From NCBI GenBank assembly GCA_963704755.1, contig OY969938.1:3120001-3152000 (forward strand): 32,000 bases of DNA, given 5' to 3'. Shown here in pieces: positions 1,567 through 15,110 of this stretch. The notes beneath the pieces are model-generated. The model had not been told where the DNA came from. It made no database searches and was given only the letters and a program-made list of their open reading frames with translations. How positions within the stretch are numbered: the stretch's first letter is position 1; every line of letters begins with the position of its first letter. The stretch is from an uncultured Chloroflexia bacterium (GTDB lineage: Bacteria > Chloroflexota > Anaerolineae > Anaerolineales > Anaerolineaceae). Made by a program: the position numbers and the translations under genes.

Positions 1567-3897
1567 TCACTCGTCTTTGCGTAAAAATGCAATCGCCAGG
1601 CCTTTTTCGTCACTCATCACAATTTCCATGTGATGATTTGGGCGATAATCCGCAATCCTTACCAGGCGTAAACTCGAGAGCAGTTCCTTGGGGACGTCGA
1701 TCCACTCTTCCAGCCGGTTGGGCGAGTTATAGAACAGGTCCCGCTGGAAAATCGTCTTCTCGTCGCCCATGTAAATCGCCAGGGGGTAGATCTGCGATTC
1801 GAGTAGGTCCTGGAAGAAATGTGTGCCCAACGAGGGCTCGGGCGGCAGGCCAAAGCCCTGGCCGGCCATTTCCACCAGTGAGCGGGCGTGGTAGATATCT
1901 CCGTAATCGATCGGTACGCCTAAATCGGAATTGGAGCTACCCCAACGACCGGGGCCAATACAGACAAAATCTTCTTTTTCGAGAGCCGCGTTCAGCCGGC
2001 CGATCGCGCGGGCCAGGTCGTTGCGCAGGCTCATGGTAGGCAGCTTGAAATAATCCTCGGGAGAGACAAATAAAACATACTTCACCGACTTGACGTAGCC
2101 CTCAGGAACCAGGAAATTGGTCTGGAAAATGACATCCTTCGGGTCCAAATCGGCCGGCAAGGCGGCCTCCGAGGTCACCTGGAGCTGGCTCTGTGGCCGG
2201 CACTGTAAAATCGTGATGCAGATATCCGGTTTGCCGTCTTTTTTGGCGAAAACCGAGATAGTAAATTCCAGGTCCACTGGCGCGCCATAGGACTGCTCCA
2301 AATGGCTGAGGATGTCGCGCATGCGCTCGGCAAAGGGAGAACGGCGCAGCATCTCATCAAAGGTTAGCACCAGGCGGCTGTTATCGTTGCCAAAGTAGCG
2401 GCTGCGCAGGGTGGAAAAATAACCGTCTTCCTCCACCTGCACCAGGTAACGCAGCGGTTCATAATCTGCGCCTAACACTTCACTGACCGGCAGGGTCTTG
2501 AACTGGTTATCCTCCAGGTCGATCAGGTCCACAAACTGCTGTGAATAGCGGCGGATCGTGCGCGGGTCGGTCGAGGGGCGCAGCATCGGGTGGCTGAGGG
2601 CAATCAGGCGAGGATAATCGTTGCCGACCCGGTCCACGGCGCGGGTTCCCATTCCCCACACCAGGCGCACAAAGCCCTCTTCGCGGCGGATCTGCGGGGC
2701 CCAACGGTACAGGTTGCGGCTGAAAGCCACGCCGGCGCCATGCGGCATAAAATAGCGCCCGAAGCGCTCGCCCTGCACGGCCTGGATGAGCACTGCCATG
2801 CGCTCATCGTAATCCAGCAAACCGCGGCTGCGCCGGTACAGCAGCGCGTTGGGGTTGAGCGTGGAGGCGTAAATGCGCGCTACCGCCCGGGTGAGGGCTT
2901 TGAAATTATCCCGCGAACTGCCCTGGTTGGGCAGGAAAACGCTTTCGTATTTACCGGCAAAGGCTGTGCCGAAATTGTCCTCCAGCAGGCTGGACGAGCG
3001 CACGATCAACGGCTGGCGGCCGACCCCGCCCATTAAGGCTTCCAGGCGCTGGGCGATATCCGGGCGGAACTCACCATCCATGAAGTCCTTGACGATGGCC
3101 GGGTAATCGGTGCGCATGTCGGTCTCATTTTTGTATTTCTGGTCGTTCCAGTGGAACAGGTTGTTGATCGACATGAACGCGTAGAATACGTCCGAACCGA
3201 TGAAGAAGGATTTGGGCGTAATCAGGCAGGAATCATCGGCCAGGTTGGAGACCTGGCTGAGAATACGGTGCGCCAGCAGCATCCCGGCTGCCTTGCCGCC
3301 GATCTTGCCCGGGCCGATCTTGTGGCGGCGGATCTGCATCAAGTCGGTGATGGTGAACCAGCGTTTGGCCACGTTGATGTAGCGCAACTGGTCGCTGATG
3401 AGTGTACGCAGCAGCACCACCTTGGTCTCCTGCAGGCGGGCATCGTACTGCGCGCGCTCCTTTTCCGGCAGGCGCTCGATGGTCATGGCCTGTTCGAAGA
3501 CCAGGTCCAGCGGGGCCGTTTCGGGGTTGAGCGAAAGCATCAGCCCAACCACGTCGATGCCGCGTTCGCTGAGGACTTCGGTGATAATCTTCTCCAGCAG
3601 CTCCAGGGTAAGTTGTTGGCTGAAACGCAGGTCGGTCAACTGGTCGCGGATGCGCGAAACCCGCAGCTCCCACACCTCCGCCGGCTCCTCACCGACCGGG
3701 TTGCGCACCCCTTCGCGCTCTTGCGATAAAATGGCCAGGCGGCGGACCTCGCTCTCGAAGTCAGCGGCCGTGATCAACTCCCGCGCGAACAGTTCCCGGC
3801 GCATTTGCTGGCGGATGCGCCCGCTCAAAATGGGGTACTGCGCCAGCGCCAGGTAAATGCCGACCAGTTTATCGGTGTGGGTAGGGATAAAGGCCAT
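1567..3897 (-). CDS. PEP/pyruvate-binding (PPDK_N ATP-grasp) domain protein of the PEP synthase / pyruvate phosphate dikinase superfamily, with uncharacterised N- and C-terminal regions
   Basis: 776-aa ORF. The blocks GPGKIGGKAAGMLLA, LIVRSSSLLEDNFGTAFAGKYESVFL and VDLEFTI..ILQCRPQ match the nucleotide-binding domain signature of PpsA/PPDK. I saw no swivel-His motif. Codon third positions are GC-rich. Confidence 0.8.
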   Translation of the reverse strand: MAFIPTHTDKLVGIYLALAQYPILSGRIRQQMRRELFARELITAADFESEVRRLAILSQEREGVRNPVGEEPAEVWELRVSRIRDQLTDLRFSQQLTLELLEKIITEVLSERGIDVVGLMLSLNPETAPLDLVFEQAMTIERLPEKERAQYDARLQETKVVLLRTLISDQLRYINVAKRWFTITDLMQIRRHKIGPGKIGGKAAGMLLAHRILSQVSNLADDSCLITPKSFFIGSDVFYAFMSINNLFHWNDQKYKNETDMRTDYPAIVKDFMDGEFRPDIAQRLEALMGGVGRQPLIVRSSSLLEDNFGTAFAGKYESVFLPNQGSSRDNFKALTRAVARIYASTLNPNALLYRRSRGLLDYDERMAVLIQAVQGERFGRYFMPHGAGVAFSRNLYRWAPQIRREEGFVRLVWGMGTRAVDRVGNDYPRLIALSHPMLRPSTDPRTIRRYSQQFVDLIDLEDNQFKTLPVSEVLGADYEPLRYLVQVEEDGYFSTLRSRYFGNDNSRLVLTFDEMLRRSPFAERMRDILSHLEQSYGAPVDLEFTISVFAKKDGKPDICITILQCRPQSQLQVTSEAALPADLDPKDVIFQTNFLVPEGYVKSVKYVLFVSPEDYFKLPTMSLRNDLARAIGRLNAALEKEDFVCIGPGRWGSSNSDLGVPIDYGDIYHARSLVEMAGQGFGLPPEPSLGTHFFQDLLESQIYPLAIYMGDEKTIFQRDLFYNSPNRLEEWIDVPKELLSSLRLVRIADYRPNHHMEIVMSDEKGLAIAFLRKDE

Positions 3898-3903
3898 AGG
3901 TGA

Positions 3904-3909
3904 ATTTTA
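3904..3909 (-). promoter_or_regulatory. -10-like box TAAAAT placed 6 nt upstream of the ATG (possible leaderless start)
   Basis: The minus strand reads ggTAAAATtcacctATG. There is no Shine-Dalgarno sequence and no good -35. Confidence 0.25.
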
Positions 3910-3935
3910 CCATCGGGGCGGGGGGAGGAGAGGAA

Positions 3936-4009
3936 GTGTCAGGGACAAGTGTGGCGGAAAGTGAAACAGTGCTTCAGTGATTCGGTGGTTCAGTGGTTCA
4001 GTGAAGCAG
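3936..4009 (+). repeat. Solitary half-array of the CAGTGATTCGGTG / GTGTCAGG short-word repeat family
   Basis: The sequence is gtgtcagggacaagtgtggcggaaagtgaaacagtgcttcagtgattcggtggttcagtggttcagtgaagcag. It uses the same words as the arms at 9110-9423 and 11232-11442. I saw no inverted partner nearby. Confidence 0.6.
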
Positions 4010-4036
4010 TTTTCCCCATTGGGTTGAGCGGTTATT

Positions 4037-4963
4037 TCAATTTTTATCTTGCCAACCGGCCCCGGCTTTCCAATACAGATTAAATTTTGCTCCCGAAACC
4101 AACGATTTAAATGGTGGCATCAGAAATCTTACCAATCTTTGGATTACATAACTAAAGTCTTTTTCCGGCCCTGATTCAATTCTATTTCTTACGATTATGG
4201 TCCGTTCCCATTCCCTTTTGTTTTCATTGGCAAATTCAGCCGTCAATGCATTCGGGAAACCATCAGGGTAATCAGTTTGTCTCTTTCGAAAAGTAGCTTG
4301 AATTGCTTGCTGAAGGAGCAGGCCATCAAAGTCAAAGTGTTCGGAGAGCAACCATATGTCATAGAAATCCTTAAACCTGCTGTTTGCTTCGCCTTTCCAA
4401 ACAATCGTGTGCGCTTTTTCGGCAACCACAGTTACAGGCGGATACCCAAACAATGTGGGCGGAGGCAAATTTTCCAAATAACAGGGATAATCTATAGGAA
4501 TGGCGCCTGGTGTGATCGTATCCGTGAAGCCGATATCGACCTGGATGGGGATCTTTGACCTTCCCAGAAAGCCGATTAAATTTACCCTTATGCCATCATA
4601 TTCGGCGTTCACTTGAGTCAGATCAATGGACAAAGTTGTTGGATTAAATAACAATCCATCTTCCGGATAGTTTTGTAAACAAATTTCGCGAAAAATTTTT
4701 TCGATGTTCTCCACCGTGTTTTGTGTGTACCCACGGAAATCAATATCCTTTGTCAGGCGGCGTGAAGGGAGATCCCACGCATTAAGGATAAGACCACCTT
4801 TTAATATGAATATTTTGGCGTACTGGGTTAAAGATAAGCGAAACAAGAATCGTTCCATAGCATAATATTGGAGTACCGTTTGAAAATCAAGATCGCGCTG
4901 CCTGGCAATATTTTTCAACCGGTCATGTACAGATACAACCACATTTTGGACGTCTTTTTTCAT
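4037..4963 (-). CDS. abiEii: AbiEii/AbiGii-family nucleotidyltransferase toxin (type IV toxin-antitoxin / abortive infection)
   Basis: 308-aa ORF. The N-terminus VHDRLKNIARQRDLDFQTVLQYYAMERFLFRLS and the NTase-like block LKGGLILNAW..RLTKDIDF are typical of DUF1814/AbiEii. It overlaps the upstream antitoxin gene by 4 nt (ATGA) and has an AT-rich composition unlike its neighbours. Confidence 0.8.
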   Translation of the reverse strand: MKKDVQNVVVSVHDRLKNIARQRDLDFQTVLQYYAMERFLFRLSLTQYAKIFILKGGLILNAWDLPSRRLTKDIDFRGYTQNTVENIEKIFREICLQNYPEDGLLFNPTTLSIDLTQVNAEYDGIRVNLIGFLGRSKIPIQVDIGFTDTITPGAIPIDYPCYLENLPPPTLFGYPPVTVVAEKAHTIVWKGEANSRFKDFYDIWLLSEHFDFDGLLLQQAIQATFRKRQTDYPDGFPNALTAEFANENKREWERTIIVRNRIESGPEKDFSYVIQRLVRFLMPPFKSLVSGAKFNLYWKAGAGWQDKN

Positions 4964-5583
4964 GAAACGATGGTCCTGATATACGGCTTTATAACCTCTT
5001 CCACCCGATCAATACGTGCATATTCAAAAATTTTGTCCATCCGTGGTTTCGGCTGGCGGACATAATCTTTCAAGGCCTCGATAGCTGTATCCAGGCCAAT
5101 GCGATTACGGAATTTAAAGCAATCTGCAATTGTTTTTTCGCGGTCGTAGATCCGAACAGGAATCTCATCGACGAGATATTCCTCAATCCCAGCGATATAT
5201 GCTTCCTTTGACAACCAATAAATATCCAGCGTGGGGTATTCGAGAGGAGGCGTTTGGACATTCCCGGGCAGTGAAATATAAACTTTGTCCGGTACCTGGG
5301 TGGTCAAGTTATGAAAATATAGAGCCGAAAGGGAACAAATGACCGCCTTTGGAACAAGCAGACTTACTTGTACAACATCCAGATTTCCCAAAGGTTCACC
5401 GCTCGCCAGCCGGTACAATCCTCTTTGCTCTTTTTCCAATATCCCTTTTGCATACATTTGATATATAGCAAATTTCGGGATCCCAAGTTTTATTGCCCGA
5501 TCTAGTTTCAAAATCCCGTGTTCGTCTTTGAAAATTTTTATAAAGGGTTCATACTTGTCAATTCTTGAATCCGTTTCGTTCAT
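4960..5583 (-). CDS. abiEi: AbiEi-family antitoxin / transcriptional regulator
   Basis: 207-aa ORF directly upstream of abiEii and overlapping it. It has an N-terminal winged-helix-like block, LDRAIKLGIPKFAIYQMYAKGILEKEQRGLYRL. Size and position match AbiEi. Confidence 0.7.
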   Translation of the reverse strand: MNETDSRIDKYEPFIKIFKDEHGILKLDRAIKLGIPKFAIYQMYAKGILEKEQRGLYRLASGEPLGNLDVVQVSLLVPKAVICSLSALYFHNLTTQVPDKVYISLPGNVQTPPLEYPTLDIYWLSKEAYIAGIEEYLVDEIPVRIYDREKTIADCFKFRNRIGLDTAIEALKDYVRQPKPRMDKIFEYARIDRVEEVIKPYIRTIVS

Positions 5584-5590
5584 AAAAACA

Positions 5591-5644
5591 ATTATACAAC
5601 TAATCCTAGGTACATTTTATAAAATACCTAGGATTAGTTATATA
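5591..5644 (-). promoter_or_regulatory. Putative abiE promoter (TATAAT 7 nt from the ATG) overlapping a 20-bp-arm inverted repeat (candidate AbiEi operator)
   Basis: Plus-strand attata at 5591-5596 is TATAAT on the minus strand, followed by tgttttt and then the ATG. The inverted repeat is tatacaactaatcctaggta (5593-5612), a 12-nt spacer, then tacctaggattagttatata (5625-5644). There is one mismatch, and the inner 14 bp are perfect. Confidence 0.5.
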
Positions 5645-5787
5645 AGTTGTAATCAACTATAAGCTAAAGACAATCTATGCGAATGTTCCCGTCTCACTTT
5701 TTTTTGAATCGAATGTTCTAATGATTTTTAAATTATGCCATTCCATTAAAGGCGATGGGCGGTCTCATCGATGTAGTTTCCTGTATT

Positions 5788-6642
5788 CTACAGATATGAA
5801 TCGCCCGCATGCAAAGTAATCACCGTAATCTCCGGCCGGCAGTTGAAGCGGATCGGCGGCGGGATGGTGCCGACGCCGCGGGTAGTGTATTGAATCATGT
5901 TCTCTACCTGGTAAGCCCCTACCGGGTATTTCCGGCCAAAGCGCGGCAGGATCAGCGGGCCGACCAGGGGTAAAGACACCTGCCCGCCGTGGGAGTGGCC
6001 GGAAAGCTGCAAGTCGAACCGGCCGGTGGCTGCGCTGACGTCGGCGTAGTCGGGTTCGTGGGCCAGCAATATGGCGGCCCCGTCGTCAGGCAGTTGGGCG
6101 AGCACGCTGGGCAGGCGGTCTTTGTGCTCAAAAAAGTCATCCACCCCGGCAATATGCAGGCGGGCGCCGTCACGCTGCAAGGTGAACACGGTGTTGCTCA
6201 AATCGATCAGGCCGCTTTGGGCAATAATTCTGCGGACGTGAGCCGAGCCATCCCAATGGTCGTGATTGCCCAGAATAGCCACGCCGGCGTCCGCCGGAGC
6301 AAGGCCGCTGAGCGGTGCCGTCAGGTCGCTGTCCGGCACAGTCACGTTGCGGGTAATGAAATCGCCGGTGATGGCCACCAGGTCCGGCTGCTGCGCGTTG
6401 ACAAGATCCACGATGCGGGCCAACTGTTCGGCGGTCATGCCCGTGCCCATGTGAATGTCGCTAAAGTGGACCAGCTTGTAGCCCTCGAAGGCCGGGGACA
6501 AATGCGGCAGGGTAAAATCCACCGGGTTGACGTCCAGCCAGTCGGGTTCGATTTCGCCCACGTAAGTGAACCCGCCCACCCCCAAAGCCAGCGCCCCCAA
6601 CGAAGCCAGGCCAATCTGCAGGAATTTTCGTCGTGAAATCAT
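5788..6642 (-). CDS. Calcineurin-like metallophosphoesterase with a twin-arginine (Tat) signal peptide
   Basis: Motifs FSDIHMG, GDFITR, GNHDHW and GHSHGGQ are present. The N-terminus MISRRKFLQIGLASLGALA is Tat-like. I prefer the ATG at 6642 over the track start at 6675, because the extension would cover a TATAAT box (6649-6654). Confidence 0.8.
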   Translation of the reverse strand: MISRRKFLQIGLASLGALALGVGGFTYVGEIEPDWLDVNPVDFTLPHLSPAFEGYKLVHFSDIHMGTGMTAEQLARIVDLVNAQQPDLVAITGDFITRNVTVPDSDLTAPLSGLAPADAGVAILGNHDHWDGSAHVRRIIAQSGLIDLSNTVFTLQRDGARLHIAGVDDFFEHKDRLPSVLAQLPDDGAAILLAHEPDYADVSAATGRFDLQLSGHSHGGQVSLPLVGPLILPRFGRKYPVGAYQVENMIQYTTRGVGTIPPPIRFNCRPEITVITLHAGDSYL

Positions 6643-6734
6643 GAGGGAATTATAGTACAGGGAGCAAGGGGGCATTATCCTGGTCTTTCCCTTGTTTACG
6701 GCGGGTAGTTAGAAACTGGACGGACCAAATAGAC

Positions 6735-6770
6735 AATTGCCTATTTTAATAATTATTAAAATAGGCAATT
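6735..6770. repeat. Perfect 36-bp AT-rich palindrome in the divergent spacer
   Basis: The sequence aattgcctattttaataattattaaaataggcaatt equals its own reverse complement. It lies about 95 bp upstream of the phosphoesterase ATG and about 100 bp upstream of the small plus-strand ORFs. Confidence 0.9.
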
Positions 6771-6916
6771 CTATTAAATGACAGGTATCCTCTTCGGACA
6801 CTTTTATTGTCAATTATAAACTTAGCTAGGGTTACTAAATTGCTCTATAATGGATTAATGATAGGGGAAATTATGACAAATAAGCCCCCGAAACAAAACG
6901 TTCGAGGAGGGTTAAA

Positions 6917-7225
6917 ATGAACGATCCGGGTTTGGACAATGTTTATAAGCGGCTAGAGGATAAAAAGATCGATGCTCTAACAATCGAGGACCTTCGTACA
7001 TTAGGCGCTTATCTTACTGCAGTTAAAAAATTCGAGGCCGCTACGTTGGTGAAATCTTATGCGGAAAAGCTGGCTAAAGCGGTCAATGAAGTCGAGGATT
7101 TGCGTCAGCAGGCTTTTCGTACTGGATTGATAGGCTTATTCGCTGCAGCAGAAAAAGCTGCGTCACATGACGTGGAGCAAGACGCCATTGATCGGGCACT
7201 TGATAAAGTAACATATGTTCCATGA
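6917..7225 (+). CDS. Hypothetical 102-aa all-helical protein (orphan, AT-rich islet)
   Basis: A strong SD (GAGGAGG) precedes the ATG. I recognised no family. A 15-codon ORF (6873-6920) ends in an ATGA overlap with its start. Confidence 0.5.
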   Translation: MNDPGLDNVYKRLEDKKIDALTIEDLRTLGAYLTAVKKFEAATLVKSYAEKLAKAVNEVEDLRQQAFRTGLIGLFAAAEKAASHDVEQDAIDRALDKVTYVP

Positions 7226-7475
7226 CCATTTTTGGTAATAATTTGCCGAGAAAACCGTTCTGTACACCTTCAACTCAAGTATGTCGGACCAACTCCTACT
7301 AGCACTTATAAAGCCCAATACCCTACCATAAGAAAATAAACCTTTTCATACAAAAATGACGGCTTTATGAAATCTTAGAGCGTTCAATGGCATGACAATT
7401 TTGATACTGCCAGCTGATACATTACATGAGCGAAGTACCAGAAGAGAGATGTTATGGTTTTAGGTTAGGAAAAGT

Positions 7476-7622
7476 ATGAATAGGACACTTCGTTCGATCA
7501 AAAGACACGGAAGGCGTGAGGCAATGAGGCCAATTGTAAATGGTCTCCCAAAAATTGGGTGTCTGGAGTTTATTTTGATTGCCGCACTTATCTTTTTAAT
7601 TCTCCTTCAATTTTCCAAATGA
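7476..7622 (+). CDS. Possible 48-aa small membrane peptide (basic N-terminus, one hydrophobic helix)
   Basis: It is below the 60-aa track cutoff. The start context is AGGAAAAGT-ATG. The product is MNRTLRSIKRHGRREAMRPIVNGLPKIGCLEFILIAALIFLILLQFSK. There is no homology evidence. Confidence 0.25.
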   Translation: MNRTLRSIKRHGRREAMRPIVNGLPKIGCLEFILIAALIFLILLQFSK

Positions 7623-7864
7623 TTTAAAGCTCATGTATTGCATATTTTGCGGCTGTAAAGCATTGTTTTTCGTCTTGGCCACTAATTGGTGAGAGAAATC
7701 CACACCATTGATTTATATTTTTATATGGAAGGTTGTAATAGAATTCTCGATTTATAATAAATTCTGATAGTGTAAAAAGCACTTCAATTCTATGTAAAAG
7801 CCATTTGTGTAATATTGGGCAATGTCTTCTGAAATCTTTTAATTCTTACCCCTCTAATATCCCT

Positions 7865-9112
7865 ATGCTCATCCATTCTGCCTCCCAACTCCTTACCTTG
7901 TCCGGCGGCCCGCAGCGCGGACGCGACCTGGGCCGCCTCAACATCATCGAAGACGGCGCAGTGCTGGTGCGCGGCGAGACGATCCAGGCGGTCGGCCCAA
8001 GCCGCGACCTGCTGGCGGCTTACCCGGACGAGGAGCGCTTCGACGCGGCCGGCCGGGTGGTGATGCCCGGGCTGATCGACCCGCACACTCACCTGATCTG
8101 GGCCGGCGACCGCGCCAAAGAGTTCGAAATGCGCCTGGAGGGCAAAACCTACCAGGAGATTTCCACCGCAGGCGGCGGGATCCGCGCGACGGTCGCGGCC
8201 ACCCGCGCCGCCGGCGTGGAAGAATTGAAAGCCCAGGCCCGCCCGCGCCTGCAATCCATGCTGGCCCACGGCACCACCACAGCCGAGGCCAAGAGCGGCT
8301 ACGCCTTGCAGCATCCCGGCGAGCTGACCCAGCTCCAGGCCATCCTGGAGCTGGACGACGAGGGTCCGCTCGAGCTGGCGCCGACCTACCTGGGCGCGCA
8401 CGACATCGCCCCCGAATATAAAGATAACCCGGACGCCTATGCCGACCTGTTGTGCAGCCGCTACCTGCCCGAAGTGCGGGTCTGGTGGCAAGCTCATGCC
8501 CACGGCCGGCCGCTGCCCTTCGTGGACGTGTTCTGCGAGTCGATCGCCTTCAACCTGGCCCAGTCCCGCCGGATTCTGGAAACGGCTCAAAGTTTGGGCT
8601 TCCCGCTCAAAATCCACGCCGACGAGTTCGATAACCTGGGCGGAGCCGCCCTGGCGGCGGCCCTGGGCGCGGCCTCGGCCGATCACCTGGTCAAGACCTC
8701 GGCCGAGGACATCCGCGCCCTGGCCGCCGGTGATACGGTGGCCGTCTCACTGCCCTGCACGCCTTTTGGCCTGGCCCAGGCCCACTTCACCCCCGCCCGC
8801 GAGATCCTGGCCGCCGGCGGCCTGCTGGCCATCGCCACCGACCTCAACCCCGGCACAGCCTGGTGCGAGAGCATGCAGTTCGCCATAGCCCTGGCCTGCC
8901 GCTACCTCAAGCTGACCCCGGCCGAGGCCATCGCCGCCGCCACGATCAACGCCGCCGCCGCCATCCGCCGCGCCGGCCGCATCGGTTCGCTGGAGCCCGG
9001 CAAACAGGCCGACCTGTTGGTCCTCTCGGTCAGCGACTATCGTCACCTGGGGTACCGGTTCGGAGGGAATGTCGTCCGAAATGTAATCAAAAAGGGGAAG
9101 GTGAGGGAGTAA
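7865..9112 (+). CDS. hutI: Imidazolonepropionase
   Basis: The blocks PGLIDPHTHLIWAGDRAKEFEMRLEGKTYQEI, GGGI, KIHADE, ADHL and ATDLNPG fit the HutI amidohydrolase pattern. I prefer the ATG at 7865, where GC content rises, over the track start at 7805. Confidence 0.9.
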   Translation: MLIHSASQLLTLSGGPQRGRDLGRLNIIEDGAVLVRGETIQAVGPSRDLLAAYPDEERFDAAGRVVMPGLIDPHTHLIWAGDRAKEFEMRLEGKTYQEISTAGGGIRATVAATRAAGVEELKAQARPRLQSMLAHGTTTAEAKSGYALQHPGELTQLQAILELDDEGPLELAPTYLGAHDIAPEYKDNPDAYADLLCSRYLPEVRVWWQAHAHGRPLPFVDVFCESIAFNLAQSRRILETAQSLGFPLKIHADEFDNLGGAALAAALGAASADHLVKTSAEDIRALAAGDTVAVSLPCTPFGLAQAHFTPAREILAAGGLLAIATDLNPGTAWCESMQFAIALACRYLKLTPAEAIAAATINAAAAIRRAGRIGSLEPGKQADLLVLSVSDYRHLGYRFGGNVVRNVIKKGKVRE

Positions 9113-9423
9113 TTCAGTAATTCGGTGATTCAGTAATTCAGTGATTCGGTGTTTCGGTGTTTCGATGTTTCAGTGTCGAGTGTCAAGTGTCAGGTGTCAG
9201 ACGGTGTTTCGGTTATACAGTGATTCGGTGTTTCAGTATCAGGTCTCAAGTGGCCTGGCACAACGCCGGTGTTACGGAGTCAAGTTTCACGTGTAAAACG
9301 GTGTTTCGGTTATACGGTGATTCGGTGTTTCAGTATCAGGTCTCAAGTGGCCTGGCACAACGGCGATGTTACGGTGTCAAGTGTCACGTGTGAAACGGTG
9401 TTTCGGTCATTCAGTGATTCGGT
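9110..9423 (+). repeat. Left arm: tandem degenerate octamers (TRWTTCRR) and heptamers (TGTCRAG), then longer combinations of the same words
   Basis: Eight octamers run from 9110 to 9173 (taattcag taattcgg tgattcag taattcag tgattcgg tgtttcgg tgtttcga tgtttcag). Heptamers follow at 9174-9201 (tgtcgag tgtcaag tgtcagg tgtcaga). The rest reuses the same words. The array begins on the hutI stop codon. Confidence 0.9.
9201..9423 (+). repeat. 97-bp tandem repeat, about 2.3 copies
   Basis: Units start at 9201, 9298 and 9395. Copies 1 and 2 differ at 6 of 97 positions by my alignment. Confidence 0.9.
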
Positions 9424-9576: not shown

Positions 9577-9887
9577 GCACTGAATTACTCTACCACCCAA
9601 ACATTGCCTCCACCTGACTCCTTCCCCCGAGTCACCGAAACACCGTCCCATACCTGACACTTGACACTCGACACCTAAAAATCGAAACACCATAACACTG
9701 AATTACTAAAGCACCCCTGACACTTGACACTGAGTCACAGAATCACTGAATCACCGAAACACCGTACGACACTTGACCCTTGACACTCAACATCGAATCA
9801 CCGTAACACTGAATCACTGCAACACTGCAACACCCCCCTGACACTGAGTCACCGAATCACTGAAATACTGAAATACTGAATCACCGA
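9577..9887 (-). repeat. Right arm: the same word family as 9110-9423 in reverse complement
   Basis: The words are caccgaaacaccg, cctgacacttgacactcgacac, gaatcactgaatcaccgaaacaccg and ctgaaatactgaaatactgaatcaccga. The outer end pairs with 9118-9151. It ends at the SD/ATG of the HD gene. Confidence 0.85.
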
Positions 9888-10575: not shown

Positions 10576-10604
10576 TTGAACCCAACCGCGAAAACCGCTA
10601 AAAT
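10576..10604 (+). promoter_or_regulatory. Sigma-70-type promoter TTGAAC-N17-TAAAAT ending 6 nt before the ATG (leaderless-type arrangement)
   Basis: ttgaac lies at 10576-10581, followed by a 17-nt spacer and taaaat at 10599-10604. Then caacct precedes the ATG at 10611. No SD is present. Confidence 0.45.
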
Positions 10605-10610
10605 CAACCT

Positions 10611-11234
10611 ATGACCATTCCCAGCGGGCCAATCCTGGTTGTCGAAGATAACGCCAACGTGCGCGAGTTGATCGACGTAACCCTGCGTTTCAAGGGCTAC
10701 CCGGTCGTCACGGCCACCAACGGGCAGGAGGCCCTGGACCTGATCGCCCAGGAAAAGCCGGCCTTGATCATCACCGACATCCTCATGCCCAAAATGGACG
10801 GCTATTCGCTGGCCCACGCTCTGCGCAAAGACCCGGCCACCCGCCAGATCCCGCTGATTTTTATCTCGGCTACCTACCTGACCCCCGAGGACAAGAACTT
10901 TGCCCTCAGCCTGGGCGCGGTGCGTTTTGTCGAAAAGCCGATTGATACGGCCGATTTTCTGCTGACCGTGGCCGAGGTGTTGACCGAGGGCATTGGCGGG
11001 CAATTCCGCCCGCTGGACGATTTGAACTTTTACGAAGGCTACCGCACCCGCCTGGAAAACAAACTGCATCACAAGCAGGTCCAGGTGACTCGCACCGAGC
11101 GCCTGTTGAGCGCCCTGCCCGAGGCGCAGAAACCGGCTTTCGAGACCCTGCTCGCGCGGGTCATCGCCGAGCGCGACGAGATCCAGACCGAGTTGGACCA
11201 GCTCATCGTGATCCTCAATGAACTGAGACAGTAA
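10611..11234 (+). CDS. Stand-alone response-regulator receiver protein with a helical C-terminal tail
   Basis: It carries REC motifs (ILVVEDN, IITDILMPKMDG, PLIFISA, K in VEKP). I recognised no DNA-binding output domain. Confidence 0.85.
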   Translation: MTIPSGPILVVEDNANVRELIDVTLRFKGYPVVTATNGQEALDLIAQEKPALIITDILMPKMDGYSLAHALRKDPATRQIPLIFISATYLTPEDKNFALSLGAVRFVEKPIDTADFLLTVAEVLTEGIGGQFRPLDDLNFYEGYRTRLENKLHHKQVQVTRTERLLSALPEAQKPAFETLLARVIAERDEIQTELDQLIVILNELRQ

Positions 11235-11442
11235 TCCAGTGTTTCAGTGATTCGGTGAGGCAGTGTCAGGTGTCAAGTTTTGGGGGCGAGCAGTGGTTCA
11301 GTGATACAGTTTTTCAGTGATCCGGTTCCTCGTGTCGCGTGTCAAGTGTCAGGGAACGGGTGGTGATACGGTTTTTTAGTGTCATGGTTCGAGTGTCTGA
11401 TGGGGGACAAGGGATTTTAGTGTTCCGGTAACTCGGTGACAG
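11232..11442 (+). repeat. Left arm of the second inverted short-word array
   Basis: The words are cagtgtttcagtgattcggtgaggcagtgtcaggtgtcaag, cagtggttcagtgatacag and cgtgtcaagtgtcaggg. The arm starts on the stop codon of the receiver gene. Confidence 0.8.
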
Positions 11443-11719
11443 GCTTAAAGTAGCATGTCTTTCTGATAAAAGGGTTGTCATTGCGAACCCTGGCCGTTTT
11501 TTGCCCAAGGGGCATGCTGCGCACCAGGGTATGGCAATCTCAACGCCGGTGTTGCAATGCTTCAGTGCTTCAGTCGCCTTTCATATCCAGGAAATTCACT
11601 ATTTGGCCGGCTACGCCTCTCAACTCCCCTCGCCCCTTTAGGGATTGGAACGGAGCCTATTCCTCCCCTGTATCCTTAGCTACCCCCCGGCTTAGAAAGC
11701 CGGGCTACATCTATAAGGC

Positions 11720-11874
11720 GTAGGTTGGGTGCGGGCTAAAAAATGGCGCTGGTCGAGAGGTATGACGTGCATCGGCACAGGTGTTGCCCACACCCAACGT
11801 CCCGGCGAAAGATGTTGGGTTGAGCTTGGCCTCGGTTGATGGGAGTATTGGTAAAACCGCTCAACCCAACCTAC
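11720..11874. repeat. Cluster of GTAGGTTGGGT / ACCCAACCTAC-type inverted repeats
   Basis: gttgggttgagc (11814-11825) pairs perfectly with gctcaacccaac (11859-11870). gtaggttgggtg (11720-11731) pairs with cacccaac (11791-11798) and with acccaacctac (11864-11874). Confidence 0.7.
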
Positions 11875-11889
11875 ATGGGGCATCTAATT

Positions 11890-12003
11890 TTGTCATTGCG
11901 AGAAGGCGTTTTTTGCCGACGAAGCAATCTCAGCCTGAGCAGGCTGTCACAATGGCCAGCGTAGAGATTGCCACGGCCCAACAAACGGGCCTCGCAGTGA
12001 CAA
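11890..12003. repeat. Three-tier nested hairpin element
   Basis: Outer tier: ttgtcattgcgag (11890-11902) with ctcgcagtgacaa (11991-12003), one mismatch. Middle tier: gcaatctc (11924-11931) with gagattgc (11964-11971). Inner tier: the palindrome agcctgagcaggct (11932-11945). Confidence 0.75.
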
Positions 12004-12038
12004 CCCTTTTCTTGAGAAAGCCATGTACTCTCGCTCCC

Positions 12039-12186
12039 CGACACTTGACAAATAGCGCTTGGCACTGTTCCACCGAATCACTGAATTACTGAAACACTGA
12101 ACCACTGCCGCCCCACCCCTGACACTTGACACATGACACAAAGAACTGAAAAACCGAATCACCGAAAAACGGAAACACCGAGTCAC
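12039..12186 (-). repeat. Right arm of the second inverted short-word array (reverse-complement words)
   Basis: The words are cgacacttgaca, ccaccgaatcactgaattactgaaacactgaaccactg, cctgacacttgacacatgacac and aaccgaatcaccgaaaaacggaaacaccgagtcac. The arm abuts the histidine kinase stop. Confidence 0.8.
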
Positions 12187-12191
12187 TCCCC

Positions 12192-13427
12192 TCACCCACT
12201 CTGGTTAATAGGTAACACCGCATAAATCGCCGTGCCCTGGCCGGCAGGGCTCTCGGCGTAGATCTCGCCGCCGTGAGCCTGCACCAGGCTCTTGGAAATG
12301 GCCAATCCCAGCCCCGAGCCGCTCGAATTGGCCGACTTGTAAAACCGGTCGAAAATATGCGGCAGGTCCTCGCCAGGGATGCCGCTGCCCGTATCGGTCA
12401 CACTGAACTTGATCTCCTCCGGGTTGGAGGGGTTCAAAGCACACCCCACGCAGATTTTCCCGCCGGGCGGGGTGTAACGCAGGGCGTTATTCACCAGGTT
12501 GCCCAACACCTCGTGAATGCGCACCGGGTCGCATTCCAGCGCCGGCAGGCCGGCAGCCGTATTCGCAACCAGGCTGACCTCCCTGGTGTTGGCCTGCACC
12601 TTGAACGAATCGACCACCTCGACCACGATCCCGGCCGGGTCGGCCTGCTCGAGCTGGAGCTTCAGCGAGCCGCTCTCCGCCAGAGAGAGCGTACGCAGGT
12701 CGTCGATGATGCGCGAAAGGGTGTGCGTCTCGTCCAGAACCGCTTGCAGCATGTGCGGGTCAGCCGCATAGATCCCATCCAGCATACCTTCCAGGTCCCC
12801 CTGGATCACCGTCAGCGGGGTGCGCAGCTCATGGGTGACGTCGGCCAGCATCTGGCGGCGCTGCTGGTTGTTGATATCCAGGCGATTGGCCAGTGAATTG
12901 ATCGCCCGGGCCAGGGCGCGGTCCTCCGGCTGGCCTCTTTCGTTGATGCGCACCGAGTAATCCCCACCGGCCAGTTTGCTGATGGCGTCCATCGTATCAT
13001 CTACCTGGGTGGCGGTAGAGCGCAGGTTGCGGCCCGATTGGAGCACGGCAAATAATCCACCCAGCAACAAAATCGCCAGGCCGGCTTTGATCAGGGGTGG
13101 AGGACCGCTGGCAGCCCGGCCAAGGAAAGCCGATGAGGAAATCCAAGACAGCAGGAGCGCCGTCATTCCGCTGGCCAGCAGCAGCAAGAAAAATAGAAAA
13201 CAGCCCACCCGGCGATAGATATGCCCGCGCATCCTCCGCCACTTACGCGGATCGGGCCGGTAGGCCGGCGGCCAGGGCTCCCCCTCCGGCCACCAGGGAG
13301 GCGATGAGTGCACCCAGGAAGAAGAATGGTGAAAATTAGGCTGGTGGCGCTCAGGATCGTGTCCGTGCGCACGCCTGTTTTCCGTCCAGCGGTTATGGGA
13401 TTTGCGTGGATCGAAGCCTGGCTTCAT
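12192..13427 (-). CDS. Sensor histidine kinase (two closely spaced TM helices, HAMP-like linker, HisKA, HATPase_c) with a His/Trp/Pro-rich N-terminal tail
   Basis: The H-box is ADVTHELRTPLTVIQG, the N-box is LGNLVNNALRYTP, and the G-boxes are DTGSGIP and GSGLGLAIS. The ATG lies 5 nt after the RR stop. Confidence 0.85.
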   Translation of the reverse strand: MKPGFDPRKSHNRWTENRRAHGHDPERHQPNFHHSSSWVHSSPPWWPEGEPWPPAYRPDPRKWRRMRGHIYRRVGCFLFFLLLLASGMTALLLSWISSSAFLGRAASGPPPLIKAGLAILLLGGLFAVLQSGRNLRSTATQVDDTMDAISKLAGGDYSVRINERGQPEDRALARAINSLANRLDINNQQRRQMLADVTHELRTPLTVIQGDLEGMLDGIYAADPHMLQAVLDETHTLSRIIDDLRTLSLAESGSLKLQLEQADPAGIVVEVVDSFKVQANTREVSLVANTAAGLPALECDPVRIHEVLGNLVNNALRYTPPGGKICVGCALNPSNPEEIKFSVTDTGSGIPGEDLPHIFDRFYKSANSSGSGLGLAISKSLVQAHGGEIYAESPAGQGTAIYAVLPINQSG

Positions 13428-13432
13428 CCGGG

Positions 13433-14113
13433 CTACTTATCCATAAACTTATAGCCCACGCCGTAAACCTTGATAATGTAGAAAGGTTCGCGTGGGTCTG
13501 GCTCGATCTTGCGACGAATATTCTTGATGTGGGCATCGATTGCCCGCTCGTAAGAGTTGATCGCAATGCCATGCACGGCTTCCAGGAGCTGCCCGCGGGT
13601 GAAGATGCGCCCGGGCTGGCGGGCCATCACGGCCAGCAGTTGAAATTCGGTCGGGGTCAGGTTGATCACCCGTTCGTTCATGGTCGCCCGCATGCGGGGG
13701 ATGTCCAGTCGCAGGCCGCCTTCCTCGATCACGTCGGACCCGGGCAGGTTGCTTTCCACCCGGCGCAGGACGGTGCGCACCCGCGCCACCAGCTCGCGCG
13801 GGCTGAAGGGCTTGGTGATGTAATCGTCGGCGCCCAGCTCTAACCCGACCAGCTTATCCGTCTCTTCGGAACGTGCGGTCAGCATAATAATGGGCGTGTT
13901 GGAGGTCTTGCGCATCTCGCGAGTCACGTCCAGGCCGTCCATTTTCGGCAGGCCCAGGTCCAAAACCACCAGGTCCGGGTGGGCCGAGCGGAAAGTGGTC
14001 AGCGCCGACGCGCCATCGAAAGCCCCCAGCACCTTGAACCCGGCGTGCTCCAGGTAATCGCGCGCAATCTGGACTATTTTTGATTCATCATCCACAACAA
14101 GGATCGTTTTCAT
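13433..14113 (-). CDS. OmpR/PhoB-family DNA-binding response regulator
   Basis: The REC domain shows ILVVDDE, VVLDLGLPKMDG and IIMLTA. The winged-helix output shows LTPTEFQLLAVMARQPGRIFTR and VYGVGYKF. Confidence 0.9.
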   Translation of the reverse strand: MKTILVVDDESKIVQIARDYLEHAGFKVLGAFDGASALTTFRSAHPDLVVLDLGLPKMDGLDVTREMRKTSNTPIIMLTARSEETDKLVGLELGADDYITKPFSPRELVARVRTVLRRVESNLPGSDVIEEGGLRLDIPRMRATMNERVINLTPTEFQLLAVMARQPGRIFTRGQLLEAVHGIAINSYERAIDAHIKNIRRKIEPDPREPFYIIKVYGVGYKFMDK

Positions 14114-14122
14114 TTTAGAAAA

Positions 14123-14131
14123 AGTATAGCA
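14123..14131 (-). promoter_or_regulatory. Extended -10 (TGcTATACT) 9 nt upstream of the RR ATG
   Basis: The minus strand reads aaTGcTATACTttttctaaaATG. There is no clear -35. Confidence 0.35.
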
Positions 14132-14143
14132 TTATTGGCGGTT

Positions 14144-14241
14144 GGCTGTTAGCTAAAAGCTGTTAGCGGTTAGCTATTAGCTGTTGGCTTTTAGCTTTTA
14201 GCTTTTAGCCTTTAGCTTTTAGCCTTTAGCAGTTAGCCGCT
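14144..14241 (+). repeat. 14 head-to-tail degenerate heptamers (AGCNNTT / TTAGC core)
   Basis: ggctgtt agctaaa agctgtt agcggtt agctatt agctgtt ggctttt agctttt agctttt agccttt agctttt agccttt agcagtt agccgct. Confidence 0.9.
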
Positions 14242-14336
14242 GATCAGTCGTATATTTATACGAAACAGGTTTGTAACCTCCAAGGGCTGAATGCAGGTAG
14301 TTTACCAAGAATTCGATTCTCCCCGGTAGGCAATTT

Positions 14337-14356
14337 GGGCGCACTGTCGTGCGCCC
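14337..14356. other. GC-rich stem-loop in the unique core (8-bp stem, 4-nt loop)
   Basis: The sequence is gggcgcac tgtc gtgcgccc. No U-tract follows on either strand, so it is not a canonical intrinsic terminator. Confidence 0.6.
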
Positions 14357-14398
14357 ATCTAAGGTGTTTCACTTCATCGCAGTCGCTGATCGCCAGGA

Positions 14399-14470
14399 GC
14401 TACCAGCTAACAGCTAACTGCTAAAAGCTAATCGCTAACCGCTAATGGCTAACCGCTAAAGGCTAACCGC
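14399..14470 (-). repeat. About 10 head-to-tail heptamers GCTAANN, the reverse-complement word of the 14144-14241 array
   Basis: gctacca gctaaca gctaact gctaaaa gctaatc gctaacc gctaatg gctaacc gctaaag gctaacc. The array ends on the stop codon of the 14470-14934 gene. Confidence 0.9.
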
Positions 14471-14934
14471 TATTTGCCCGCACCCTCTTCGGGGGCCTTG
14501 CCTTGCGGTTCCTCGTGCATCTTGCGATGCCACTGCTCGACGATCGGGGGGACCTGGTCGTGCTCAGGATCAAAGCCATACGGGCCGAAGCCACGCGGGC
14601 CATAACCCTGGTGATGCATGCCCATGCCGCCGTAGTAACCTCTGTGCCAGGCGCCGGGGAAGAACAGGCGCCGGATCCCGCCAATGATCAGGAACAGGAA
14701 AAAGAGGCCGATCAAGAAGCCAAAGGGGAAGAACCCAAAGCCCCAACCCCACGGGTGGAAGAGATAGCCCGGGTGGACGTACGGGGCAGTCATCCCAGGC
14801 GTAGTGATGGTAACGTTGCCGTTAGCGGCCAAACCGTTCGCCACTCCCTGGTTATAAACTACCACGCCCAGGCCGGCCAGCAAACCGACCACAATCAGCG
14901 TAAATAAGATACTAAGAAAAATTCTACCTTTCAT
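14470..14934 (-). CDS. Hypothetical membrane protein with a Gly/Phe/Trp-rich segment and a His/Met/Gly/Tyr-rich tail
   Basis: 154-aa ORF with GAGGAG SD upstream. It has an N-terminal TM helix, then HPWGWGFGFFPFGFLIGLFFLFLII, then WHRGYYGGMGMHHQGYGPRGFGPYGF. I recognised no family. Confidence 0.6.
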   Translation of the reverse strand: MKGRIFLSILFTLIVVGLLAGLGVVVYNQGVANGLAANGNVTITTPGMTAPYVHPGYLFHPWGWGFGFFPFGFLIGLFFLFLIIGGIRRLFFPGAWHRGYYGGMGMHHQGYGPRGFGPYGFDPEHDQVPPIVEQWHRKMHEEPQGKAPEEGAGK

Positions 14935-15077
14935 CGTTACTCCTCATTATTGATTTCCCGCACCGGAGATTTTCTCCGGCCCAGGATGTCCGTCAATCCA
15001 TAATTGATCATGCTGTTATTATCCATAAGGATTGTGTACCAATTATGAAGAGAAGATGGAAGGATTGTGGAGGGAGG

Positions 15078-15110
15078 CAGTTCAGTGTTACGGTGTTGCA
15101 GTGATTTAGT
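15078..15110 (+). repeat. Solitary short half-array of the CAGTG-word family
   Basis: cagttcagtgttacggtgttgcagtgatttagt lies directly after the permease stop. Confidence 0.5.

Follow-up and report, generated by a model that had tools for sequence, protein, structure and literature searches.

An unusually large convergent inverted pair of heptamer arrays fills an intergenic spacer in an uncultured Chloroflexia bacterium

A 32,000-nt stretch of the genome of an uncultured Chloroflexia bacterium (assembly GCA_963704755.1, contig OY969938.1, positions 3,120,001 to 3,152,000; hereafter the window, by whose positions all coordinates are given) contains two arrays of head-to-tail 7-nt units, built on the word TTAGC and its reverse complement, that face each other between a gene for a small membrane protein and a two-gene regulator operon. 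The pair occupies the entire 356-bp spacer from the stop codon of the membrane-protein gene to the promoter of the regulator operon, and it is identified here, with high confidence, as a convergent inverted pair of heptamer simple-sequence-repeat arrays of unusual size. Heptamer arrays have, to our knowledge, gone more than 30 years without an agreed function; the order rule, the recurrent word and the arm length described below narrow the possible explanations. Our tentative proposal, which we hold at somewhat short of even confidence, is that the element is a non-terminating 3' hairpin on the upstream transcript, comparable to the repetitive extragenic palindromic (REP) elements, that has grown by slippage, borders on the leaderless promoter of the regulator and supplies part of it.

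Architecture and folding of the array pair

Both flanking genes lie on the minus strand, so the minus strand is their sense strand. The arms of the element are as follows.

14133-14237: promoter-proximal arm; the minus strand reads GCTAANN and the plus strand NNTTAGC; found by Tandem Repeats Finder (TRF; period 21, score 98) and by repeat search.
14398-14472: stop-proximal arm; the minus strand reads NNTTAGC and the plus strand GCTAANN; found by TRF and by pattern matches on the minus strand.
14385-14398, plus strand: GCTGATC and GCCAGGA, two degenerate inner units that keep the phase of the GCTAANN array as counted from 14399 (GCTACCA) and 14406 (GCTAACA).

By eye, the promoter-proximal arm comprises about 15 units of NNTTAGC on the plus strand; TRF reports it at periods 7, 14 and 21, with up to 10.4 copies of AGCTTTT at 84% matches, and the outer half shows a 21-nt super-period while the inner half is uniform TTTTAGC/CTTTAGC. 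The stop-proximal arm comprises about 11 units of GCTAANN on the plus strand (TRF period 7, 10.7 copies of AGCTAAC), its word being the reverse complement of that of the other arm. The unit TTAGCNN mostly takes the form of AGCT followed by three linker bases, which are NTT in the first arm and AAN in the second; TTAGC is mostly followed by T, giving AGCT every 7 bp, and stop codons occur in all six frames. The three-unit pattern TTAGCNNTTAGCNNTTAGC, with at most one mismatch allowed, has 18 matches in the window, all of them in this element, and none in 100 dinucleotide-preserving shuffles; TRF and the shuffles both show head-to-tail units in longer runs than chance would give. Inverted heptamer arrays had been described at this place by an earlier sequence-only reading of the window, and TRF, pattern matches and shuffles confirm them as real. 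The arrays lie between the open reading frames (ORFs) at 14470-14934 and 13433-14113, and the other arrays of the window are likewise intergenic.

The inverted arms at 14158-14242 and 14380-14464 are 85 nt long and 74% complementary, the value ranging from 74 to 85% according to register. Comparison of the fold with shuffled controls was a check set beforehand, and the result was clear on both strands: the 367-nt spacer folds at -145.1 kcal/mol on the minus strand (shuffle mean -103.1, z -8.33) and at -156.7 kcal/mol on the plus strand (shuffle mean -108.6, z -8.49), with no shuffle as good in either case. In the plus-strand fold the arms pair along nearly their whole length, between 14136/14472 and 14242/14380, and so form an imperfect stem of about 100 nt. 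No U tract follows this long stem on either strand.

Relation to described repeat systems

The sequence-only reading had supposed a general mechanism behind inverted arrays of short words. The phenomenon is indeed general, since the same architecture occurs in many genomes and has been published for another heptamer (PMC4692102); it is thus already in the literature, without explanation, and what is new here is the word and the extreme size. GGGAATC heptamer arrays, with GGGGAYT/Nostoc relatives, were reported from Xanthomonas by Rehm et al. (2015; PMC4692102) as mostly intergenic and as forming 70-75 convergent inverted pairs per genome, one array on each strand. The Xanthomonas pairs lie within 50 bp of gene ends, with the nearest ORF, whichever way it runs, 5' of the array, and the arrays, which prefer about four units, are transcribed and yielded no function (PMC4692102). 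The Xanthomonas and TTAGC elements have in common the convergent inverted pairs, the strand rule, the preference for about four units and the mostly intergenic location. At the present locus, too, one word is carried by one array per strand in convergent arrangement with the G+T-rich arm first, and on the sense strand the arm with the TTAGC reading includes the upstream gene's stop codon in its first unit. The two differ in base composition and in distribution. NNTTAGC has no run of G, so the G-quadruplex rationale of the Xanthomonas study (PMC4692102) cannot apply to it; and TTAGC pairs are found in many phyla and in temperate phages, whereas the Xanthomonas repeat is the signature of one genus. 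With 11-15 units per arm and a 160-nt core, the window element is also far above the typical 4-5 units.

A second published heptamer, TAACTGA, occurs just upstream of start codons in Beggiatoaceae, Cyanobacteria and Bacteroidetes, in 169 direct sets and 1 inverted set, and has been proposed to act in translation initiation (MacGregor 2015; PMC4679880). Like TTAGC, it consists of head-to-tail 7-nt units that are sporadic, intergenic and presumed to originate by slippage, and it stands in its A-rich, stop-containing orientation just before start codons. It differs in that the inverted pair is the defining feature of the TTAGC elements, and in that the downstream gene here is probably leaderless. 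Our survey of viral contigs gave no inverted TAACTGA pairs in either order and is uninformative on this word. Heptamers are the commonest long simple-sequence repeat, sporadic and attributed to polymerase slippage, according to the account of Mrazek (2007) that is given in PMC4679880. In Nostoc, the deletion of heptamer arrays near promoters changed promoter activity 1.5- to 2.9-fold (bioRxiv 10.1101/2022.06.06.494920).

The best functional analogy for a non-terminating 3' hairpin is offered by the REP elements, their bacterial interspersed mosaic elements (BIMEs) and the REPINs (Bertels and Rainey, 2011; PMC3116915). Like the TTAGC pair, REP/BIME sequences are short intergenic inverted doublets that lie after stop codons and form long imperfect hairpins without U tracts; they do not terminate transcription, and they occur in many copies per genome. 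REP elements stabilise mRNA. The analogy has limits: a REP unit is one palindrome of about 20-40 nt that bears a conserved 5' tetranucleotide and is moved by RAYT transposases, whereas a TTAGC arm is a tandem 7-nt array and, unlike REP, no within-genome copy family of the window element's core is known. A contig from a gammaproteobacterial bin (L041) carries two near-identical TTAGC-armed elements, at 4005-4152 and 7461-7608, which share the same 96-nt core 3.4 kb apart and represent either a dispersed or a flanking repeat.

Four further classes of element were considered and rejected. There are no unique spacers between the repeats, as CRISPR would require; GTTAGCC misfits the GTTRRRY of integron attC sites, and the order is opposite. 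Response-regulator binding sites would be expected as an OmpR-type repeat every 10-11 bp, and the element stands beside unrelated genes elsewhere. A replication origin with iterons does not suit two phage contigs (described below) that carry 7 to 12 or more copies each.

Distribution, arm order and phage copies

A survey of genomes, with one genome per species and four TTAGCNN units as the query, gave at least 120 matches. Among the matches listed are members of the Cyanobacteriota, Acidobacteriota, Bacteroidota, Desulfobacterota, Clostridia, Planctomycetota, Gemmatimonadota, Chloroflexota, Proteobacteria and candidate phyla, about ten phyla in all. Where a TTAGC array and a GCTAA array form a pair, the order in which the TTAGC array comes first predominates in each of three collections:

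Genome contigs (adjacent pairs, among the matches listed): TTAGC first 35, GCTAA first 4.
Viral contigs (both orders explicitly tested): TTAGC first at 21 sites in about 14 lineages, GCTAA first in 1 contig.
Metagenome contigs (seeded with six-unit arrays): TTAGC first 17, GCTAA first 2.

The total, among the matches listed, is 73 with TTAGC first against 8 with GCTAA first. The rule is valid for tandem, convergent and divergent neighbouring genes; among unpaired arrays it is weaker, at about 2:1 (37 vs 18 beside stop codons, 14 vs 7 beside start codons). For other words in the surveyed loci, the G-rich arm comes first in about 19 cases and second in 6. Control words with the composition of TTAGC were more than five times rarer, and on viral contigs they gave 1 vs 2 (TTACG) and 3 vs 0 (ATTGC) in the first and second order. 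The scarcity of the controls indicates that the word TTAGC itself is favoured.

Arms are mostly 4-5 units long and the median spacer is 31 nt. They usually adjoin stop codons, and they finish 0-20 nt before a Shine-Dalgarno sequence and ATG. The window element, with 11-15 units per arm and a 161-nt core in this survey, is the largest of the first 72 pairs listed, and metagenome elements of comparable size exist (e.g., L170 and L272). Period 7 is the dominant tandem-repeat period in the surveyed loci, and genomes rich in long simple-sequence repeats carry many words. TTAGC arrays were not found printed in the literature searched. Three results appear to be new: the presence of TTAGC pairs in about ten phyla and in the structural operons of temperate phages, the order bias over the three collections, and the more than fivefold scarcity of control words.

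Two phage contigs carry the element in series. IMGVR_UViG_3300021255_003533 (L133, L145, L147) has at least 12 copies of the TTAGC-armed element and IMGVR_UViG_3300028833_000521 (L136, L144) at least 7, and in both the copies occupy nearly every junction of co-directional genes. Their layout is a stop codon, (TTAGCNN)4, an asymmetric conserved core, (GCTAANN)4-5, a Shine-Dalgarno sequence and ATG; the core consists of TTAAGTTACTT, GCGCGCC-N4-GGCGCGC and CAAA, and occurs in both orientations within IMGVR_UViG_3300028833_000521. Proteins of both contigs match terminase, portal, major head, protease, tail and integrase families, from which the contigs are taken to be temperate tailed phages. Separate canonical terminators adjoin some copies (L136, L145, L147), and a GCCGC-TTCG-GCGGC hairpin recurs beside some. 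With an element at almost every junction, these two contigs make a tractable experimental system.

A non-terminating hairpin and its competitors

In the proposal that we tentatively favour, the arrays would grow and shrink through replication slippage, as established knowledge of such repeats leads one to expect, and the two arms would evolve independently. A single tolerated order would be kept, in which the TTAGC-reading strand starts at the gene boundary and points to the centre of the spacer. As far as the DNA alone allows one to say, transcripts of the upstream gene would run into the spacer, and the arms would then pair, at 5 of the 7 positions of each unit, into the imperfect stem of about 100 nt around the 160-nt core with its strong GC stem-loop. 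Such a stem would block 3' exonucleases, give a double-stranded processing site and part the upstream message from the regulator operon. The insulator role that the sequence-only reading had put forward is plausible. The lack of a U tract 3' of the stems argues that the structure is not an intrinsic terminator, and hence that it is REP-like and non-terminating. Since the last units of the array supply a -35-like hexamer, slippage could also tune the regulator promoter.

Several observations weigh against this proposal. Identity at linker position 2 is 0.27 in paired and 0.30 in unrelated elements, independent of register, and the copy numbers of the two arms are uncorrelated (rho 0.08). With linkers that are not complementary and arm lengths that do not covary, selection for a good hairpin is not visible; the arms behave as independent arrays, in which the word and its orientation are maintained and perfect pairing is not. 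A pure hairpin model does not explain the conserved word and orientation, and the preference for TTAGC over words of the same composition is left unexplained by our proposal as well. Copy-number variation between strains, the signature of slippage, is lacking in the single comparison that could be made: a near-identical strain copy (L001, the sole other copy compared) carries the arrays without any change, its one difference being an indel in the core. The closest sampled relative as judged by PFK (78% identity) has lost synteny and shows no such arrays in 15 kb, which means that any function is dispensable. A comparison that does not count on either side is that of fold strength across elements: the sense fold was slightly weaker than the antisense fold in 36 of 53 copies (sign test p 0.013, Wilcoxon p 0.16, not significant), the copies being non-independent.

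More distant comparisons concern the spacer rather than the arrays. In L123, the gene order and the promoter are kept, and the orthologous spacer (6391-6802) is 406 nt long, has no heptamers and folds into two long hairpins (z -7.2); a structured spacer ahead of this regulator promoter therefore recurs. GTCATCCTGAGC...GCTCAGGATG underlies one of the L123 hairpins and GGGTGGAGGGGCGT...ACGCCCCTCCACCC the other, and these repeats are unrelated to TTAGC. In L122, different genes intervene between the small-protein gene and the regulator.

The main rival is that the element is a functionless product of slippage that fills the spacer, with the order rule reflecting merely those arrangements that do no harm. 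This is possible, if on the doubtful side. The missing linker complementarity and arm-length correlation speak for it, as do the lack of arrays in both the closest sampled relative and the orthologous L123 spacer, the sporadic occurrence of heptamer repeats among lineages (as Mrazek 2007 is cited in PMC4679880) and the failure of a dedicated study in Xanthomonas to find a function (PMC4692102). The very strong order bias, 73 vs 8 among the matches listed, is hard to reconcile with it, and so are the more than fivefold preference for the word, the peak of arm lengths at 4-5 units and the tight abutment of arms on stop and start signals in compact phage operons. Order, word and arm length thus point beyond neutrality, at least for the short-armed family, and the strong structure of the L123 spacer also stands against a by-product.

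The same three features, a fixed word, a fixed order and preferred arms of 4-5 units, are unlikely to arise from slippage alone. They raise the more ambitious reading, which we consider rather improbable, that inverted TTAGC arrays form a distinct, undescribed cross-phylum family of polar intergenic elements recognised by a conserved machine or by a break-related DNA process. If it were true, the four-unit preference in Xanthomonas, which has been ascribed to G-quadruplexes, would have a more general cause, as G-quadruplexes cannot explain the 4-5-unit arms of TTAGC elements. For the order rule itself there are four candidate causes: the opposite order would be shaped like a bidirectional terminator; the -10-like TAGCTT hexamers would face inward, not outward; G-poor leaders would be tolerated ahead of start codons; or a break-related or Chi-like DNA polarity may be at work.

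The last of these can be phrased as an explanation of its own, in which the order is a polarity tied to double-strand breaks. In each arm, the strand rich in G and T points its 3' end at the centre, a geometry that would match Chi-like sites facing a break at the centre or repeats added to the 3' ends of a healed break. The order is indeed defined relative to the spacer centre and not to gene direction, being the same for tandem, convergent and divergent neighbours; other words show it too, in the excess of pairs with the G-rich arm first, and the same rule is stated in PMC4692102. The likeness is purely one of geometry, and these lineages have no known enzyme or Chi sequence of the kind; the rule is obeyed by many words, whereas Chi is one sequence per species, and extrusion and cleavage of a hairpin are unlikely with a 160-bp spacer. 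We regard this explanation as highly improbable.

It is very unlikely that the element is an intrinsic, possibly bidirectional, terminator acting through the long stem or the GC stem-loop, the other role that the sequence-only reading had suggested. The structure is very stable and comes directly after a stop codon, the downstream operon has its own promoter, and the GC-rich stem-loop after a gene (14336-14357, 9 pairs) is a feature shared with intrinsic terminators; the U tract is not. None follows the GC stem-loop on either strand, the next letters being AAAUUGCC on the minus strand and AUCUAAGG on the plus strand, and a terminator scan gave nothing at the GC stem-loop and only chance-level matches inside the arrays (2 vs 1.6 expected). 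The arm order, U-rich 5' and A-rich 3', is the reverse of that of a bidirectional terminator. In the phages, the element lies between nearly all co-directional genes, so read-through must be tolerated and it cannot be a strong terminator; it also lies beside canonical terminators in L136, L145 and L147. A terminator of the usual kind is thus supported neither by the stems, which lack a U tract, nor by the phage copies.

The heptads could instead be DNA or RNA sites for an oligomeric protein that regulates the adjacent promoter or message. The omega repressor, a ribbon-helix-helix (RHH) protein of the inc18 plasmid pSM19035, binds cooperatively at promoters, one dimer per non-palindromic 7-bp heptad WATCACW, with heptads in direct or inverted orientation, and HutP binds UAG triplets in RNA that are spaced by 4 nt. 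The conservation of word and orientation rather than of arm complementarity would suit such a protein, as would the strong preference over control words and the peak at 4-5 units; at this locus the array overlaps the -35 region, and NNUUAGC in RNA gives UAG with 4-nt spacers, which is a resemblance of pattern only. The same architecture with unrelated words (CAGTGATT and GTGTCAA) occurs within 5 kb, and, as one architecture and one genome can hold many words, it is implausible that each word has a binding protein of its own. Across about ten phyla and the phages, TTAGC pairs stand beside genes of all kinds, including convergent genes, between which a promoter is not expected, and no candidate protein was identified. 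The omega system is plasmid-specific, whereas TTAGC arrays also lie between convergent genes and in operons; we know of no omega-like protein for TTAGC arrays. The spread over about ten phyla likewise argues against the HutP family, and no HutP or hut genes were found in the window. Taken together, a protein-binding array appears unlikely.

The core and its direct repeats

Between the arms lies a core whose length had been put at 140 bp. Its uniqueness in the window stands, and its length is corrected to about 160 nt (14238-14397), of which 138 nt (14246-14383) lie between two copies of a direct repeat. The palindrome, the GC stem-loop and both short direct repeats named by the sequence-only reading, together with the extended -10, are present where it had placed them. 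The features of the core are as follows.

14246-14383: core, 138 nt; a series of small local hairpins, unique in the window.
14248-14263: small palindrome TCGTATA-TT-TATACGA; helix of 14248-14253 with 14258-14263 in both folds.
14336-14357: GC-rich stem-loop GGGCGCAC-TGTC-GTGCGCCC; 9 pairs (14336-14344 with 14349-14357) and a 4-nt loop, in both folds.
14238-14245 and 14384-14391, plus strand: direct repeat CGCTGATC; 8 bases exact, by repeat search.

The direct repeat can be extended to 10 of 11 identical bases (14235-14245 vs 14381-14391), and CAGTCG is duplicated at 14245-14250 and 14380-14385. The left copy of the direct repeat comes straight after the last TTAGC unit, and the right copy, which coincides with the first degenerate inner unit (GCTGATC), is in phase with the GCTAANN array. 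In the fold, base pairing joins one copy to the other at the stem base (14232-14237 with 14385-14390, and 14239-14242 with 14380-14383). A blastn search of the core against the 32-kb window returned its self match only, and a 33-mer from the core had no matches in metagenome contigs. Small ORFs within the core are not credible, being 22-41 aa long and without signals. Rfam 15 gave no matches at the gathering threshold for the whole window, and a permissive search of 14050-14550 returned merely spurious plant miRNA matches (27.8 bits vs a gathering score of 100).

The sequence-only reading had raised the idea of a target-site duplication, and a core of this kind could be a small insertion: about 138 bp would have entered the first GCTAANN unit of a compact palindrome and duplicated the 8-11 bp AGYCGCTGATC, the expected empty site being ...TTAGCCGCTGATCGCCAGG... 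The exact 8 bases (or 10 of 11), the phase of the right copy (14385-14391) with the array and the position of the left copy against the last TTAGC unit all fit such an event. Without the core and one copy, the spacer would shrink to about 14 nt, a length typical of a family with a median of 31 nt in whose members the TTAGC array mostly runs straight into the GCTAA array, and the rough chance of such a repeat at both junctions, estimated post hoc, is about 0.002. Another core in the window, at 11322-12070, holds three copies of a different small repeat. On the other side, the direct repeat is quasi-palindromic, and its copies pair at the stem base; in the window there is no second copy of the core, and in metagenome contigs no match to its 33-mer; and edge repeats occur in 0 of 11 other long-spacer elements. 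When the spacer is viewed as a possible miniature inverted-repeat transposable element (MITE), the arrays could pass as the inverted ends of the whole, while the 138-nt core, by inspection, lacks terminal inverted repeats; no transposase gene was found in the window. An insertion is thus conceivable, though we think the balance tips against it.

Flanking genes and the regulator promoter

The features on either side of the array pair are as follows.

14470-14934, minus strand: ORF for a membrane protein of 154 aa (ORF list, translation).
14470-14472, minus strand: stop codon TAG of the 154-aa ORF, which is the TAG of the first array unit (sequence AAATAGCGGTTAGC).
14123-14152, minus strand: promoter-like site of the regulator operon, with -35 CTAACA, an 18-nt spacer and extended -10 TGcTATACT (promoter scan).
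13433-14113, minus strand: gene for an OmpR-type response regulator (Pfam Response_reg and Trans_reg_C).
12192-13427, minus strand: gene for a histidine kinase (HAMP, HisKA and HATPase_c), after the regulator and in the same downstream unit.

The 154-aa protein has hydrophobic stretches that, by inspection, are consistent with membrane segments; it matches no family, and a search of 5.8 billion proteins gave only 11 homologs. The promoter-proximal arm ends 20 nt before the ATG of the regulator, with its TTAGC strand antisense, and the array extends to position -14 of the regulator promoter, the -35-like hexamer CTAACA being itself an array unit. The extended -10, TGCTATACT at 14123-14131 on the minus strand, ends 9 nt ahead of the ATG, and no Shine-Dalgarno sequence was found before the regulator gene. 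The proximity of the -10 to the start codon makes it likely that the mRNA of the operon is leaderless or nearly so, with its promoter at the edge of the array. The identical TGCTATACT, followed by 9 nt and ATG, precedes the regulator in the ortholog L123. The placement of the array pair exactly between a stop codon and an extended -10, to which the sequence-only reading had drawn attention, therefore holds, and the -10 with its 9-nt distance is kept in a distant ortholog. An annotation of this genome would accordingly show no terminator and no known RNA in the spacer, and would place the probable start of the regulator operon at a leaderless promoter of its own.

Four genes of the window without a Shine-Dalgarno sequence have a -10-like TAnnnT 6-9 nt before the ATG (3898-3915, 5584-5600, 10595-10610 and 14114-14131), the distance being 6-7 nt at the three other than the regulator. 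This proximity of TAnnnT to the ATG at four genes suggests, on sequence grounds, that leaderless mRNAs may be common in the source organism. The 154-aa gene differs in that a good AGGAG stands 5 nt ahead of its ATG.

Other arrays in the window

Two further inverted-array structures are present in the window, at 9100-9423 facing 9632-9887 and at 11229-11321 facing 12071-12181. The sequence-only reading had placed structures of the same architecture near 9110 and 11232, with words unrelated to that of the present element, and TRF and inverted-repeat results bear this out. Their units are 7- and 8-mers unrelated to TTAGC, namely CAGTGATT, GGTGTTTC, GTGTCAA and complements. Each of the two structures takes up the entire spacer between a stop codon and the next gene. 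In all three structures the first arm is richer in G+T than the second (G+T fractions of 0.67/0.36 for the TTAGC pair, 0.64/0.30 and 0.68/0.26 for the others), and the arrays run up to a stop codon, a start codon or a promoter of the neighbouring genes. Inverted arrays are thus found beyond this spacer, two more in the window and others in many genomes; a sequence shared by the cores, which the sequence-only reading had proposed to look for, is lacking among the three structures of the window.

Nested in the core (11322-12070) of the 11229 structure is a small element, TTGTCATTGCGA...CGTTTTTTGCC...GCAATCTCA, in three copies, two direct and one inverted (11468-11549, 11890-11932 and 11956-12010), from which it appears that cores in this genome accumulate insertions or small repeats. 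The left arm of the 9100 structure contains, at 9182-9423, a 97-nt unit repeated 2.5 times (91% matches). Each copy of this unit has a parS-like stretch, GTTTCACGTG at about 9284-9293 and TCACGTGTGAAAC at about 9384-9396, and these resemble what we take to be the parS consensus, TGTTNCACGTGAAACA, with one extra base.

An octamer array at 15075-15108 directly follows the stop codon of a CitMHS-type transporter gene. Its sense strand, AAATCACT GCAACACC GTAACACT, is C/A-rich, so that this short array breaks the rule by which a stop codon is followed by the G/T-rich strand. The source is an Anaerolineae-like Chloroflexota chromosome, present as one contig of 4.87 Mb; its PFK has 70-78% identity to Anaerolineae proteins, its closest matches. 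The blocks 4000-6000 and 6500-8000 have 41-44% G+C, the rest of the window having about 59%, and may be foreign DNA; the ORFs at 4037-4963 and 4960-5583 have no NCBIfam match. A single unpaired G/T-rich array, CAGTGGTT and relatives, lies at 3930-4010 in the 139-nt spacer between the genes at 1567-3897 and 4037-4963, both on the minus strand.

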